The position numbers were made by a program, and so were the translations under genes. Positions 1,910 through 22,783 of a stretch of 37,216 nucleotides of DNA are shown one piece after another. The stretch's first letter is position 1, and every line of letters begins with the position of its first letter. Location: positions 1-37,216 of the forward strand of contig JBDRGO010000030.1 in NCBI GenBank assembly GCA_043817715.1. The letters run 5' to 3'. Below the pieces are notes generated by a model. The model was not told the DNA's origin. It ran no database searches and saw only the letters and a list, made by a program, of their open reading frames with translations. The DNA comes from Candidatus Iainarchaeum sp. Its GTDB lineage: Archaea > Iainarchaeota > Iainarchaeia > Iainarchaeales > JAFGBZ01.

Positions 1910-1986
1910 TGGTGGGCCCGGAGAGATTTGAACTCTCGACCTCACGATTATCAGTCGTGCGCTCCACCAGACTAAGCTACGGGCCC
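1910..1986 (-). tRNA. tRNA-Ile (GAU), CCA encoded
   Basis: Minus strand GGGCCCGTAGCTTAGTCTGGTGGAGCG-CACGA-CT-GAT-AA-TCGTG-AGGTC-GAGAGTTCAAATCTCTC-CGGGCCCACCA forms a full cloverleaf. Confidence 0.96.
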
Positions 1987-2849: not shown

Positions 2850-2954
2850 ATTAATCAATTAAAATAACTGCATTTAAGTTAAAAAAGTTATTGAATTCGC
2901 ACCGGAAATCTACTGCCAAAAACATTCTTAAACTAAAATAACTTGCTTAAAGAC

Positions 2955-3875
2955 ATGGGTTTAGAACTAAATGTTTTTGATATTGAAAAAGACTGGCTTG
3001 ACAAAAACCTCTTTATTGGGGGAATTAAAGAAGAATTAAAAGAATTAATTGATTATCTAGGCAAAACAAAAAAAGCCTCAGAAATCACAAGGGTTTCTTA
3101 TGATTGTATAAAAGAAGCTCTTTTAGGAAGAGCCCCAATTAACCTCAAAAAATTAAGTATTATATTAAATTCCGTTCCAGAAGGGCTAAAAGAAAAAACA
3201 ATTCAAAAAATTAAAAATAAAAAAACCAGTTATTCGGTTCAAAAAAGCAACAAGAAAATATTTTTTCCTGCAGCATTAAACGAAAATTTGGCTTATATTA
3301 TAGGAGTCATTTTAGGGGATGGGCATTTACATTCTAATAAAAATAACAAAAAAGGAAATTGGACTATTTGCGTTTATTTTGACAACTATTGCCACATGAA
3401 AAAATATAATAAAATTATAAAAAATGAGATTGGAATTAAAGCAAAAATCAATAAAGAAAAGAACTGTTTCAATTGCTATTTTTGTTCAAAAGCAATTCAT
3501 TGGTTTTTTATGTCCTTTTTTAAATTAGTTAATGGAGCTAAATTTGATAAAATAATAATACCAAAAAGAATTATTGATTCAAAAAACCGAAAAATAATTA
3601 ATTCCTGCATACAGGGCTTGTTTGATTCAGATGGAACAGTAACAAAAAGATATGCGGGATTTTCAAGCACCAGCAAAAAAATAGTTAATCAAGTGCATTT
3701 GATTCTGGAAAAACAAGGAATAAGCCCAAAGAAACATAAGTGGCTCAAAAACAAGAAATATAAAATGCTTTATTCTACAAGAATCGGAAACAAAGAAGGA
3801 ATTAAAAAATTCCAGAAAAAAATCGGTTTCAGGCATCCGGTAAAAAAGGAAAGGTTAAATACCTTACTTAACTAA
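2955..3875 (+). CDS. Free-standing double-motif LAGLIDADG endonuclease-like protein with putative N-terminal HTH
   Basis: Motifs LAYIIGVILGDG and CIQGLFDSDG, intervening GAK..IIIP lysine block, C-terminal F..KIGF.HP.K. No HINT/intein splicing residues. ATG at 2955 (TTG alternative at 2943). Confidence 0.88.
   Translation: MGLELNVFDIEKDWLDKNLFIGGIKEELKELIDYLGKTKKASEITRVSYDCIKEALLGRAPINLKKLSIILNSVPEGLKEKTIQKIKNKKTSYSVQKSNKKIFFPAALNENLAYIIGVILGDGHLHSNKNNKKGNWTICVYFDNYCHMKKYNKIIKNEIGIKAKINKEKNCFNCYFCSKAIHWFFMSFFKLVNGAKFDKIIIPKRIIDSKNRKIINSCIQGLFDSDGTVTKRYAGFSSTSKKIVNQVHLILEKQGISPKKHKWLKNKKYKMLYSTRIGNKEGIKKFQKKIGFRHPVKKERLNTLLN
3849..3864 (+). promoter_or_regulatory. Putative BRE/TATA promoter of tRNA-Gln, embedded in the LAGLIDADG 3' end
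   Basis: GAAAGGTTAAATACC: purine-rich BRE plus TTAAATA about 27-33 nt before the tRNA 5' end. Confidence 0.5.
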
Positions 3876-3887
3876 AAAATTAACGAT

Positions 3888-4012
3888 AGCCCCATCGTCT
3901 AGCGGTCAAAGGAAGTAAGAGGCCCTCTTTATTTTAAGAGCAAATCTTCTTCCTGCCGAAAGGATACGAGCCTCTGGAGCTTGTGGCCGGAGTTCGAATC
4001 TCCGTGGGGCTA
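3888..4012 (+). tRNA. tRNA-Gln (CUG) with 52-nt non-canonical D-loop intron (3909..3960)
   Basis: Exons 3888-3908 and 3961-4012 join into a cloverleaf: acceptor AGCCCCA/TGGGGCT (A1-U72), anticodon arm CGAGC-CT-CTG-GA-GCTTG. Junctions form a bulge-helix-bulge: CGGT/GCCG helix, bulges CAA and AAA, intron stem AGGAAG/CTTCCT. Confidence 0.92.
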
Positions 4013-9245: not shown

Positions 9246-10115
9246 TTAAGCGCTTAATTTCTTAATCAAAGCAGGAATTTCATGAAGCAAATCAGATGCA
9301 ATAAATGAATGCCCTTTTTTCTTCAGTTGATTATCCCCTGCCAAGCCATTAATGAATGCTGCTGCACAGGCGCTTTTGAACAAGTCCCTGCTTAAAGCAG
9401 TCAAGCCAGCACATAATCCTGCAAGGACATCCCCTGTTCCCCCCACGGTCATTCCGGGATTGCCTGTTTTATTCAATGAAATATTTTCCCCGTCAGAAAT
9501 TATGTCAATTTTTCCTTTCAATAAAATAATGCATTTATGTTTTTTTGCCAGTTCCTTCACTGTCTGAATTCTTTTATTTAAATTAAATTTTTCTTCAAAC
9601 AGGGTTTTTCCTGAAAAAATCTCAAACTCGGTTTTATGAGGGGTGAGCAATACCTTTCCGTTGAATTTCATTCCCTTAACTGCCTTAATTGCATCAGCAT
9701 CCAGAATTAATGGAATTCTTTCACGCATTAATTTCTTTACAATTCTTTGAATCAAATGCTGAGTGTCTTTGTTCAAACCCATTCCAGGCCCAATTAAAAC
9801 TGCATCAAATGATTTTGCAACAAAAAAAAGCATTTTCAAGTGCTTGGAGGAAAGATTTTTTCCTGAAAATTTTTTCACAATAATGTCAGGAGAAAAAGAA
9901 TTAATTATGAATCCAGCTTTTTCCGGAGCAGCAACAGTAACAATATCAACCCCGCTTCTTAAAGCAGCCAATGCAGCCATTGCACTTAATGCAGGAGCAC
10001 CAATAAAATCATTGCTTCCTCCAATAACTAAAACTTTTCCATTCTGTCCCTTAAATGAATCAGGACTTCTTTTTGGGATGAAATTTTTGAATGAATTTAA
10101 TGAAATTTCATTCAT
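9246..10115 (-). CDS. nnrD: ADP-dependent NAD(P)H-hydrate dehydratase
   Basis: KG.NGKVLVIGGS..F.GAP, IGPGMG, LDADA, TPH..EF, GGTGDVLAG. Confidence 0.93.
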   Translation of the reverse strand: MNEISLNSFKNFIPKRSPDSFKGQNGKVLVIGGSNDFIGAPALSAMAALAALRSGVDIVTVAAPEKAGFIINSFSPDIIVKKFSGKNLSSKHLKMLFFVAKSFDAVLIGPGMGLNKDTQHLIQRIVKKLMRERIPLILDADAIKAVKGMKFNGKVLLTPHKTEFEIFSGKTLFEEKFNLNKRIQTVKELAKKHKCIILLKGKIDIISDGENISLNKTGNPGMTVGGTGDVLAGLCAGLTALSRDLFKSACAAAFINGLAGDNQLKKKGHSFIASDLLHEIPALIKKLSA

Positions 10116-12004
10116 TTAAATTCCTCTTTCAGTAAGTTATTCATTTCTTTTTTAATTAATTCAGATATTTCTTTTCCGTCCATTTTTCCTTTTAATTCCT
10201 TCATTGCCTCGCCCATTAATGCACTGAATGCATGGATTCCTTTTTCTTTAATTAAGGGTTTGTTTTTCTGAACTATTTCTTCAATGATTTTTTTTCCTTC
10301 TTCTTTTGAAGTCATTGAAACTCCTGCTGATTCATTTAATTCATTTAATGAATTAAAAGGATTTTTAGATAATTCTCCAAGCATTTTTGGAACTGATTCC
10401 CTAGTTAATTTTTTTTCATTTAATGCATTAAAAACCAATTCAATTGATTCATTTGAAAGCAATTCAATTGGATAACCATTTCGTTTAAGAGAAGGCAATT
10501 CATCCAATAAAATAGTTGCAACAAGAGTTGCATTAAATCCTTTTCCAATCAATTCTTCAAAAAAACGCGCATAATTACTTAACTTCATTTGATTAGCTAA
10601 TTTCTCACTTAAATTAAATTTCTTTGAATAAAGTTCAAATCTTTCCTTTTCAGTTAAAGGCAAATGCTTTTTTAAATTCAATAATTCATTTTCATTAACT
10701 TTAATCGGCAATAAATCAGTTTCAGGATACATTCTTGCAGCAGAAGCAATTGGACGCATGTATTCACTTGTTCCTTCAGGCAAAGCATTTCTTGTTTCAC
10801 TTGGAATTTTTTCCAAAGCAATAATGCATCTATCCAAAACAATTTTCAGTGCATTAACTGCTTTTTCTTTTTCTCCTGAAACCAAAACAAAAGCATCTTC
10901 TTTTGAACAAAAAAGCAATGAATTAACTTCATTAATTTCTTTTTCACTTATTCCATAAGCAGGCAATTCATCACTATGAAGCAATCCTTTCAAACCAGTT
11001 CTGATTTTTACATAATTAGATAATTCGGTTCCAAATCTTTTTTTTGGCTGCAATTCTTTTCCAATTAATGCATGCATTTTCTTTAATTTCAAACCAAAAA
11101 CATTTTTTTCTTTCAAAAACTTGCATTCAGAATTAATAAATACTCTACTTAAATCAATTATTTCTTCTTTTCTTAAATCTTCTTTTTTAATTCCTCTTAA
11201 ATTCATTTCATTCATTAATTCAATTAAATTCATTTGTCTTTGAATTTCTAATTCAACCAATTTATCCATTAATTCCAGTTCCTGCACGCCCTTTAATTCA
11301 ACCCTTGCACCGCCTTCAATTGAAATATTCAAATCCTGCCTGACGCTTCCCAAACCTCTTCTTGCATAACCAGTGCGCCTGAACATTGAACCAATTTCTT
11401 TTGCAACTTTTTTTGCTTCTTCAGGGGAGGTTATGTCAGGAGCAGTAGTAAATTCAATTAAAGGAATTCCTAATCTATCCAAGCCATAAATTATTTCATT
11501 TTCATTTTTCTCAATTATTCTAGAAGCATCCTCTTCCAATACAAGCAAATCAACATTGATTTTTTTTCCTTCAACTTCAAAAAAACCATTTCTTGCAACA
11601 AGCATAGTTCTCTGAAAACCACCAGTATTAGAACCATCAATAACTATTTTTCTCATTGGTACAAGTTCCTGAAAAATTTCTGCATTAACCATTAAAGCAA
11701 TTTCATAAATTGTTTGTAATGCCAAAGAATTAATTTCATGGGGAGGCTCTGAATCAGATTCAACTAAACAACAAGCATTATCAAACCAATAATAAACAAA
11801 TGTCTTTGATTTTTTTGCTTCCTCTAAAGCAGCAGCATCAACTGCATTCATTTCAGAAGCAGTAGCACGAAGTTTTCTTTTAAAAACAAAGTCCGGATTC
11901 GCTGTTTCATTTAAAATGCATGGGCAGGAACAGAAAAGTTTTCCAGTATTAAGCTGCTGATGTACTTCTAAACCAACTTTCAATCCAAGTTTTTCATAAT
12001 CCAT
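10112..12004 (-). CDS. gatE: Glu-tRNA(Gln) amidotransferase subunit E
   Basis: GLKVGLEVHQQL..GKLFC.CP, IDGSNT.GFQRT, LDRLGIPLIE, RRGLGSVRQDLN, RMYPETD. Confidence 0.97.
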   Translation of the reverse strand: MDYEKLGLKVGLEVHQQLNTGKLFCSCPCILNETANPDFVFKRKLRATASEMNAVDAAALEEAKKSKTFVYYWFDNACCLVESDSEPPHEINSLALQTIYEIALMVNAEIFQELVPMRKIVIDGSNTGGFQRTMLVARNGFFEVEGKKINVDLLVLEEDASRIIEKNENEIIYGLDRLGIPLIEFTTAPDITSPEEAKKVAKEIGSMFRRTGYARRGLGSVRQDLNISIEGGARVELKGVQELELMDKLVELEIQRQMNLIELMNEMNLRGIKKEDLRKEEIIDLSRVFINSECKFLKEKNVFGLKLKKMHALIGKELQPKKRFGTELSNYVKIRTGLKGLLHSDELPAYGISEKEINEVNSLLFCSKEDAFVLVSGEKEKAVNALKIVLDRCIIALEKIPSETRNALPEGTSEYMRPIASAARMYPETDLLPIKVNENELLNLKKHLPLTEKERFELYSKKFNLSEKLANQMKLSNYARFFEELIGKGFNATLVATILLDELPSLKRNGYPIELLSNESIELVFNALNEKKLTRESVPKMLGELSKNPFNSLNELNESAGVSMTSKEEGKKIIEEIVQKNKPLIKEKGIHAFSALMGEAMKELKGKMDGKEISELIKKEMNNLLKEEFK

Positions 12005-22156: not shown

Positions 22157-22226
22157 GAAATACTTAATGATGTTTTTAATTAAAAAGGTTCTTTTTTAAA
22201 AGTAACAGACAAAAAATACTAATAAT

Positions 22227-22300
22227 GGGGCTGTAGTCTAGCCTGGTTAGGATTCAAGCTTTGGGAGCTTGCGGCCCCGGTTCAAATCCGGGCAGCCCCA
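22227..22300 (+). tRNA. tRNA-Pro (UGG)
   Basis: GGGGCTG/CAGCCCC acceptor, CAAGC-TT-TGG-GA-GCTTG anticodon arm, CCCGG-TTCAAAT-CCGGG T arm. Confidence 0.96.
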
Positions 22301-22343
22301 TGCAATCATCAAGATTTAAATTCTCATTCAATGTTAATTAATC

Positions 22344-22709: not shown

Positions 22710-22783
22710 GGGGGAGTAGTTTAGCCTGGTTATGACCCACGCTCGGGGAGCGTGGAACCCGAGTTCAAATCTCGGCTCTCCCA
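22710..22783 (+). tRNA. tRNA-Pro (GGG) with C at position 33
   Basis: GGGGGAG/CTCTCCC acceptor, CACGC-TC-GGG-GA-GCGTG anticodon arm, CCGAG-TTCAAAT-CTCGG T arm. Confidence 0.9.

Follow-up and report, generated by a model that had tools for sequence, protein, structure and literature searches.

A free-standing LAGLIDADG gene adjoining an intron-bearing tRNA-Gln(CUG) gene in Iainarchaeota: a candidate homing endonuclease cassette with a marked tRNA allele

What places introns at so many unusual sites of archaeal tRNA genes, and by what route they move, is an open question. The 37,216-nt stretch of DNA analysed here (the window), contig JBDRGO010000030.1 of Candidatus Iainarchaeum sp. (assembly GCA_043817715.1), carries a free-standing gene of the LAGLIDADG endonuclease type (hereafter the ORF, for open reading frame) directly upstream of a tRNA-Gln(CUG) gene whose D-loop is interrupted by a 52-nt intron. 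Wherever an orthologue of the ORF was found in the order to which this organism belongs, it lies against the 5' end of that same tRNA gene. The ORF is probably a selfish gene, and its product probably an active single-chain LAGLIDADG homing endonuclease. The explanation that we favour, with a confidence somewhat better than even, is that of a homing endonuclease cassette that stands on its own, has specialised on tRNA-Gln(CUG) and travels with a linked, marked tRNA allele, the D-loop intron being one such mark. The pairing of ORF and tRNA may help to explain the origin and the persistence of odd tRNA introns.

The ORF and its junction with tRNA-Gln(CUG)

Orthologues were surveyed in 196 genomes of the order (Iainarchaeota, DPANN), including that of the window (G000; here and below, G-numbers denote genomes, L-numbers loci and f-numbers families). 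They are present in 25 of these genomes, G000 counted, and two of the 25 copies are broken. The identity of the window ORF to most of them is 37-48%, and in the part that survives of one broken copy it reaches 56%. At all 25 loci a same-strand tRNA-Gln(CUG) is found directly at the 3' end of the ORF, adjoining or overlapping it; one of the contigs ends 15 nt into the tRNA. The position of the ORF stop ranges from 34 nt ahead of the tRNA start to 46 nt into the tRNA. The TAG at tRNA positions 13-15 serves as the stop codon at 10 of 24 loci, where the last residues of the protein are thus encoded by the tRNA gene. Such a junction is far beyond chance. The coupling of the ORF to tRNA-Gln, which a first-pass annotation had proposed from the window alone, holds across the order: a gene that stands on its own and has retained its catalytic residues is specifically tied to tRNA-Gln(CUG).

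No orthologue was found at tRNA-Gln(UUG): the first batch contained 21 UUG alleles and gave 0 matches. In later batches, weaker LAGLIDADG relatives were detected upstream of three tRNA-Gln(UUG) alleles (L202, L204 and L304). Those of L202 (G102) and L304 (G125) are distant paralogues located directly upstream of the tRNA, with E-values of 5.5e-9 and 2.5e-8 against the orthologue profile.

The ORF product is matched in two stretches by the Pfam model PF14528 (LAGLIDADG_3; E 1e-20, 74.2 bits against a cut-off of 22.5). When a profile built from 23 orthologues was compared with solved structures, the best matches were two active enzymes of archaea, PI-PfuI (1dq3, E 1.2e-10) and I-DmoI (E 2.7e-7). 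Each LAGLIDADG motif (Table 1) is closed by an acidic catalytic residue, D122 in the first and D226 in the second, and both aspartates, as well as the lysines K196 and K265, are invariant across the 23 orthologues. The two motifs with both catalytic Asp positions and the lysine block, as read at first pass, are thus borne out. The ORF product shares a two-motif single-chain nuclease core with I-DmoI and PI-PfuI. However, these two enzymes are encoded within an rRNA intron and an intein, whereas the window gene is free-standing, lies outside the tRNA and adds an N-terminal domain resembling a helix-turn-helix (HTH).

The possibility that the ORF is part of an intein or is carried by an intron was rejected, since it has a start and a stop codon of its own as well as a box resembling a promoter; in agreement with the first-pass annotation, no extein or intron frame surrounds it in the window. 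A search of NCBIfam with the ORF protein returned only intein-bearing host proteins. The putative promoter of the ORF was read from the sequence, and the three orthologue loci of G014-G016 likewise have a TATA-like box, some 30 nt ahead of the ATG. Because the box of the window begins 28 nt upstream of the ATG, the ORF mRNA is probably leaderless or nearly so.

The N-terminal region of about 95 residues has no match in Pfam or NCBIfam. It contains a motif, E54-W55..G58-R59.P61, that is conserved among the orthologues, and residues ~20-94 of the ESM Atlas model of the protein align with HTH_3, HTH_26 and HTH_31 clusters at TM 0.53-0.59, which is taken as a lead only. This region is probably a Cro/C1-type HTH domain; the HTH claimed by the first-pass annotation thus finds a lead in the structural model but not in the family databases.

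The combination of a LAGLIDADG fold with an HTH is also found in the bacterial transcription factor WhiA, and the first-pass annotation had offered as an alternative that the ORF could encode a domesticated, non-mobile WhiA-like regulator that binds DNA and controls transcription of the adjacent tRNA. The tight and ancient linkage to one tRNA gene, a gene tree that follows taxonomy and the overlap of the putative tRNA promoter with the 3' end of the ORF would all suit such a role. However, WhiA carries its HTH at the C-terminus and has lost the catalytic acidic residues, whereas in the window protein the HTH-like region is N-terminal and both Asp, invariant in the 23 orthologues, are retained. 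The WhiA-type LAGLIDADG model PF14527 reaches only 18.6 bits, under its cut-off of 23.2, and membership of the WhiA family was rejected. Moreover, the gene is absent from 171 of the 196 genomes, and broken in two, while in at least eleven only the last 30-90 codons are left; alleles that lack it would use another promoter region. A regulatory function is consequently improbable in our judgement.

Table 1. Position and basis of the features of the ORF-tRNA locus and of its recurrent neighbour
Feature	Position in the window	Strand	Details and basis
Single-chain, free-standing LAGLIDADG endonuclease gene, 306 aa + stop	2955..3875	+	ATG 2955, TAA 3873-3875; Pfam PF14528, orthologue profile matches, orthologues in 25/196 genomes
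N-terminal region, ~95 aa, probably a Cro/C1-type HTH DNA-binding domain	2955..3239	+	Conserved motif, ESM Atlas model alignment
LAGLIDADG motif 1	3288..3323	+	Residues 112-123, end G121-D122-G123; G117, L120, G121, D122, G123 invariant in 23 orthologues
LAGLIDADG motif 2	3600..3635	+	Residues 216-227, end D224-S225-D226-G227; G221, L222, F223, D224, D226, G227 invariant in 23 orthologues
Putative ORF promoter	2927..2954	+	A/T-rich TATA-like box starting 28 nt before ATG; read from sequence, same layout in G014-G016
Putative tRNA promoter in the last ORF codons	3841..3863	+	Purine-rich stretch and TATA-like box TTAAATA (3855-3861); position and retention in remnants
tRNA-Gln(CUG) gene, 125 nt	3888..4012	+	Exon 1 3888-3908, exon 2 3961-4012, anticodon CTG 3974-3976; sequence parse and fold
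Non-canonical D-loop intron, 52 nt, bulge-helix-bulge (BHB)	3909..3960	+	Fold and parse; same motif in other genomes
tRNA-Ile(GAU), divergent, upstream of the ORF, recurrent neighbour	1910..1986	-	tRNA search; neighbours in other loci

The linked tRNA alleles and the presence, absence and decay of the ORF

The tRNA gene of the window was parsed against two intron-less genes, the tRNA-Gln(UUG) of G000 and the tRNA-Gln(CUG) of the same-genus genome G002. Its exons match those of the latter (exon 2 identity 93%). The gap between the ORF stop and the tRNA start is 12 nt (3876-3887), exactly as first described, and the intron begins 34 nt past the last base of the stop codon (about 33 nt in the first-pass annotation, which also gave its length of 52 nt correctly). 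The intron-exon boundaries form a regular BHB motif. Its central helix has 4 bp (3903-3906 with 3955-3958, 4/4 pairs), the two bulges have 3 nt each (3907-3909 and 3959-3961), the outer helix is the D stem (4/4 pairs) and the inner helix has 6 bp (3910-3915 with 3949-3954). The same-position BHB is shared by 19 parsed alleles from other genomes, with 4/4 central and 4/4 D-stem pairs. In two of them, L031 and L052, both sides of the first central pair are changed, from C-G to T-A. The genome of the window encodes a splicing endonuclease (PF01974, 74.7 bits, G000:C7).

Non-canonical BHB introns occur in archaeal tRNA genes of Thermoproteales and of ARMAN/Micrarchaeota. The window intron resembles them in its odd position and its BHB motif, and it is presumably cut, like them, by the tRNA splicing endonuclease, an enzyme whose types are among the subjects treated in PMC5829648. 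A D-loop intron of the same position and build is present in a tRNA-Glu(CUC) gene at L058 (G067:C136).

The intron also explains how automatic tools read this gene. ARAGORN missed it with default settings and called a tRNA-Arg when introns were allowed, whereas the Rfam match is limited to 3954-4012 and scores 21.3 bits against a gathering score of 29. Both calls were rejected as miscalls.

The promoter of the tRNA appears to be embedded in the conserved C-terminal codons of the ORF. The likely TATA box noticed at first pass in the last ORF codons is present as TTAAATA, and its putative promoter role is suggested by its position, with a centre at about -30 relative to the tRNA 5' end, and by the similar A/T boxes found at -45 to -25 from the tRNA start at orthologue loci. 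In addition, the stretch formed by the purine-rich sequence and the A/T box is the part of the ORF that is retained in C-terminal remnants at the G002, G064, G098, G107 and G112 loci. The tail of the ORF would outlast the decay of the gene because it carries this putative promoter.

The relationship between the ORF and the intron was studied in a census of 82 tRNA-Gln(CUG) alleles, which combined the orthologue loci that are complete (24) with alleles retrieved from two BLAST lists covering the order and, for three families, by pattern searches; the alleles of a fourth family (f15) were taken from the BLAST lists. Remnants of the ORF were considered clear at an HMM E-value of at most 0.003, with the exception of that of G002, which was identified by ORF listing. 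The 22 alleles with a D-loop intron comprise 10 with an intact ORF, one with a broken ORF, eight with remnants (E <= 0.003), two with weaker traces and one with no trace. The corresponding figures for the 60 alleles without a D-loop intron are 12, one, three (G002 included), one and 43. An ORF or its remains thus accompany 19 of 22 D-loop-intron alleles versus 16 of 60 alleles without this intron (Fisher p 1.7e-6, a value that overstates the case since the alleles are related and non-random). If the two weaker traces are counted, the proportion among D-loop-intron alleles rises to 21 of 22. The association is one-sided: the D-loop intron hardly ever occurs unless the ORF or its remains are present, whereas the ORF is frequently found without the intron.

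The ORF-linked tRNAs that lack the D-loop intron mostly carry D-arm variants or a canonical intron. For instance, in family f32 D-loops that are 1 or 2 nt longer or D-arm substitutions are present in 7 of 8 ORF-linked alleles and in none of 7 ORF-free alleles (p 0.0014), all seven of the latter having one common standard D-arm. In family f14 all 13 ORF-linked alleles have an intron, compared with only 1 of 6 ORF-free alleles. When the four families are taken together, an intron or a D-arm variant is found in 27 of 29 ORF-linked versus 4 of 29 ORF-free alleles.

The near confinement of the D-loop intron to alleles with the ORF or its remains could also be expected if the protein acted on RNA, as a maturase or chaperone assisting the splicing of the non-canonical D-loop intron from the adjacent pre-tRNA, and LAGLIDADG proteins do serve as maturases for group I introns. 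However, the regular BHB motif of the intron and the splicing endonuclease encoded in the genome argue against this function, as do the conservation of the catalytic residues, the eight alleles that hold the intron with only an ORF remnant and the 12 intact ORFs that lack a D-loop intron beside them. The class of intron-encoded maturases was rejected, since no ORF lies within the 52-nt intron and the LAGLIDADG ORF is entirely upstream of the tRNA. We consider a role in splicing very improbable.

Alleles with and without the ORF occupy the same locus, as judged by flank homology, in five genera or genus groups. Two copies of the ORF are broken (L034 and L037), and eleven loci retain only the last 30-90 codons beside the tRNA (ten at HMM E <= 0.003, plus G002); weaker traces exist at three more loci (L205, L054 and L109). 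Presence and absence at a homologous locus, together with degenerate copies, is a pattern expected of homing endonuclease genes. In the genus of G014-G018, both allele types have in common the upstream UPP synthase gene and the tRNA but differ in the entire spacer, which is a native stretch of ~120-170 nt in the ORF-free alleles and a stretch of ~1 kb holding the ORF in the others. At this locus the ORF and the intron are both present in three genomes and both absent in two. ORF-free alleles would use a different promoter region. The third-codon identity among G014-G016 is 0.69-0.745 for the ORF versus 0.59-0.605 for the adjacent UPP synthase gene, a housekeeping gene; as a single case, this fits exchange of the ORF among congeners.

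Fragments of tRNA-Gln are also found at these loci. In 6 of 24 ORF loci, a 3' fragment of tRNA-Gln running from the T-loop to the 3' end is located downstream of the intact gene, in three of them within 35-96 nt. The fragment of L026 resembles the ORF-free allele type and not the adjacent gene. Similar 3' fragments exist in five other genomes. These fragments look like the remains of a resident gene that was overwritten by an incoming ORF-plus-tRNA unit. No tRNA-Gln 3' stump is present in the window. No 5' tRNA fragment was found upstream of the ORF at the 24 loci with a 22-nt query. A query of 11 nt, with one mismatch permitted, likewise found none at the 24 loci or anywhere in the window. 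The 3' fragments recorded are those of L026 (2488-2548), L037 (~2527-2650), L024 (2521-2570), L063, L187, L200, L210, L215 and L218. A short perfect hairpin often immediately precedes them, and in G021 (L187) two copies of the fragment are arranged in tandem.

Relatives of the ORF at other tRNA genes

The linkage to tRNA genes is not exclusive to the orthologues. A set of 64 free-standing, non-orthologous paralogue loci was formed from the matches listed whose open frames have 220-460 aa, plus five from G000, G001 and G002; 125 further matches fall outside this set. Linkage was scored by a strict home-made tRNA scanner, and a same-strand tRNA was regarded as abutting when its start falls in the range from -105 to +70 nt relative to the ORF stop. 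Among these matches listed, a same-strand tRNA abuts the 3' end of the ORF at 35 of the 64 loci, an opposite-strand tRNA overlaps the 3' end at 8, the only tRNA lies just upstream at 6, and there is none at 15. The partner tRNAs include Leu(UAG), Leu(CAG), Arg(GCG), Glu(CUC), His and Gly. In G000 a same-strand tRNA abuts only 8 of 622 long frames, and 3 of these 8 are LAGLIDADG genes. The comparison of the 35 of 64 paralogue loci (among the matches listed) with the 5 of 619 other long frames of G000 gives a p-value of ~1e-35, so that the enrichment of homologues beside tRNAs, which the first-pass annotation had suggested examining, is strong. The weaker relatives outside the order are mostly inteins in long open frames and are uninformative with respect to tRNA linkage.

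Within G000, a D-loop BHB intron was found in only 2 of 34 scanned tRNAs, namely the tRNA-Gln(CUG) of the window and a tRNA-Val(GAC) of contig C15. A LAGLIDADG ORF abuts the 5' end of each of these two, but of only 1 of the 32 other tRNAs. The LAGLIDADG ORF of contig C15 (7280-8106; E 3.4e-23 against the orthologue profile) was not recovered by the protein search of its own genome. It reads into the tRNA-Val(GAC), whose D-loop BHB intron has 38 nt. On contig C3 of G000 (~9440-10667, L006), another LAGLIDADG gene is split into frames of 283 and 127 aa between the HMG-CoA synthase and thiolase genes; it shows repeated HTH-like N-terminal segments and has no tRNA nearby.

Several other oddities were observed in tRNA genes. 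At the ORF-free loci L303 (G147), L304 (G125), L313 (G149) and L317 (G135) of family f15, a three-part element is located 65-130 nt upstream of an intact tRNA-Gln. Its parts are a copy of the first 10-15 nt of the tRNA, a hairpin bearing the motif GCGAAAAA and a stretch complementary to the acceptor 5' strand, and the canonical intron of L303 contains a hairpin-plus-motif similar to that of this element. In family f14, the loci L190, L191, L194, L195, L196 and L198 contain 3' halves of tRNA-Gln(UUG) with no 5' half within ~300 nt, and at L190 a tRNA on the opposite strand lies in between; this arrangement points to a very long intron or to a split tRNA gene. Other members of this family (L201, L216, L219 and L220) have an 81-nt canonical intron. 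The divergent tRNA-Ile(GAU) of the window (Table 1) is also divergently upstream of the ORF at L023 and L036, and it is found upstream of tRNA-Gln(UUG) in G001 and G002. The window also carries two tRNA-Pro genes on the + strand, UGG (22226-22301) and GGG (22710-22783), which are 408 nt apart.

A proposed cassette with a marked tRNA allele and its alternatives

The presence and absence of the ORF among congeners, its broken copies and remnants, the invariant Asp residues and a third-codon identity above that of the flanking gene together argue for a free-standing homing endonuclease cassette. According to the model that we propose, this lineage, which sits against the 5' end of tRNA-Gln(CUG) in Iainarchaeota, would be one branch of a radiation in which each branch occupies one particular tRNA. 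The cassette would have its own promoter, and the last ~15 codons of the ORF would carry the promoter of the tRNA. The tRNA would in this way depend on the tail of the cassette, and the tail would for this reason remain after the rest of the gene has decayed. At a single fixed locus, the ORF and the tRNA allele linked to it would be gained or lost jointly. The enzyme would most likely cut the ordinary, uninterrupted tRNA-Gln(CUG) of genomes devoid of the ORF, and the tRNA behind the ORF would be a resistant allele, marked by the 52-nt D-loop intron in the window and by D-arm length variants or other changes elsewhere.

Different results weigh against this proposal. With respect to the intron, 12 of the 22 intact ORFs adjoin a tRNA-Gln(CUG) without a D-loop intron, and at L030 the intact ORF stands beside a fully standard intron-less tRNA. 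Six changes are required to place the D-loop intron on the ORF tree. Only 1 of 19 long tRNAs adjoining paralogues passed the strict D-loop BHB parse, several others being unresolved. The census alleles are mutually related and non-random, and outside the four families they were chosen from BLAST lists and are not exhaustive. With respect to mobility, the tree of the 23 intact orthologues (the two broken copies and all remnants were excluded) recovers the four multi-member families as clades with support of at least 98 and needs 8 changes for 9 family labels, which is the minimum, so that it is fully congruent with the families. The tree thus gives no sign of transfer beyond families, and vertical descent with loss could account for much of the pattern. 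The third-codon contrast is based on one genus and one flanking gene. Finally, the 3' stumps begin at the T-loop and, as a consequence, give no pointer to a target in the D-arm.

Several of these results would also be accommodated if the same cassette had its target elsewhere, for instance at the junction between the upstream flank and the tRNA 5' end that is split by the ORF, or in the T-arm, the intron being merely a linked passenger that confers no protection. Since the ORF and the intron are 34 nt apart, they would be inherited, converted and lost together. In this respect, the ORF is always located exactly at the tRNA 5' end, as expected if the site is disrupted by the insertion itself; the T-loop, where the 3' stumps begin, belongs to the region of tRNA genes that is recognised by T4 SegB (PMC2330249); and an ORF tree congruent with the families implies that shared descent can produce the association, to which the 12 intact ORFs without a D-loop intron must be added. 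However, the D-loop intron, the D-loops longer by 1 or 2 nt and the D-arm substitutions accumulate only in ORF-linked alleles while the ORF-free alleles keep the standard D-arm, as illustrated by the contrasts in f32 and in the four families given above. Moreover, the second D-loop-intron tRNA of G000, tRNA-Val(GAC), also has a LAGLIDADG ORF of its own. We regard a passenger intron as a rather unlikely explanation, although it deserves more consideration than the regulator or the maturase.

The cassette with a marked tRNA allele is retained as our preferred reading, in a form that differs from that of the first-pass annotation. The latter had described a collaborative homing unit in which the intron provides self-immunity. 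A nuclease gene beside an intron-bearing tRNA and the co-occurrence of both across relatives, including their joint presence or absence in the genus of G014-G018, agree with that description. However, the intron is not necessary for the persistence of the ORF, as indicated by the 12 of 22 intact ORFs that lack it, and in G002 an ORF remnant is found beside an intron-less tRNA. The co-occurrence holds in one direction only, and self-immunity through the intron would be one of several forms of protection.

Some known systems share features with this locus. T4 SegB (PMC2330249) is a free-standing GIY-YIG homing endonuclease encoded in the T4 tRNA cluster, which recognises a T-arm motif of a tRNA gene and drives the inheritance of its own gene and of neighbouring tRNA genes, with demonstrated cleavage. 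As in SegB, the window ORF is a free-standing endonuclease gene among tRNA genes. However, it belongs to the LAGLIDADG type, is cellular and is only predicted to cleave, whereas SegB is a phage enzyme of the GIY-YIG type whose gene is not fused to the 5' end of one tRNA and has no link to an intron.

In studies of cyanophage S-PM2, F-CphI is reportedly a free-standing endonuclease next to an ORF-less psbA intron, with which it takes part in collaborative homing. Collaborative or trans homing of this kind, by F-CphI with the ORF-less psbA intron and by T4 mobE with I-TevIII, is a subject of PMC6083498 and PMC2790892. These cases resemble the window locus in that a free-standing nuclease gene stands beside an intron-containing gene and that the intron is proposed to interrupt the cut site. 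The introns of those systems are self-splicing group I introns in phage protein genes, while that of the window is a presumably protein-spliced BHB intron in a cellular tRNA. In addition, the D-loop intron is present at only 10 of 22 intact-ORF loci, other tRNA alterations being found in its place.

To our knowledge, published accounts do not tie non-canonical tRNA introns to adjacent endonuclease genes. A full-text literature search, which left subscription journals uncovered, retrieved no paper that describes LAGLIDADG genes of cells lying against tRNA genes, or a link to BHB introns.

The locus offers a testable pairing, since throughout an order a single conserved lineage of nucleases keeps to the same tRNA gene, and nature has provided a series of alleles: plain, with the D-loop intron, with D-loop insertions, with a canonical intron and with a decayed ORF. 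It would also represent a way for a selfish gene to occupy an essential gene without an intron or an intein. The strategy would be to adjoin the tRNA, often to use its bases as a stop codon, and to take over its promoter, so that the tail of the ORF could no longer be lost. From a practical point of view, enzymes of this kind would be compact and highly specific nucleases, and the arrangement accounts for recurrent tRNA miscalls and "missing" tRNAs in DPANN annotations. A broader idea, which we put forward tentatively and hold to be possible rather than probable, is that the non-canonical tRNA introns and D-arm oddities of DPANN archaea arise and persist as marks of resistance against tRNA-targeting LAGLIDADG endonucleases, each gene being parked at one tRNA gene, where it would cut the plain allele and carry the marked copy. 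If this were true, selfish LAGLIDADG genes would drive both the diversity of tRNA introns in archaea and the replacement of tRNA genes.

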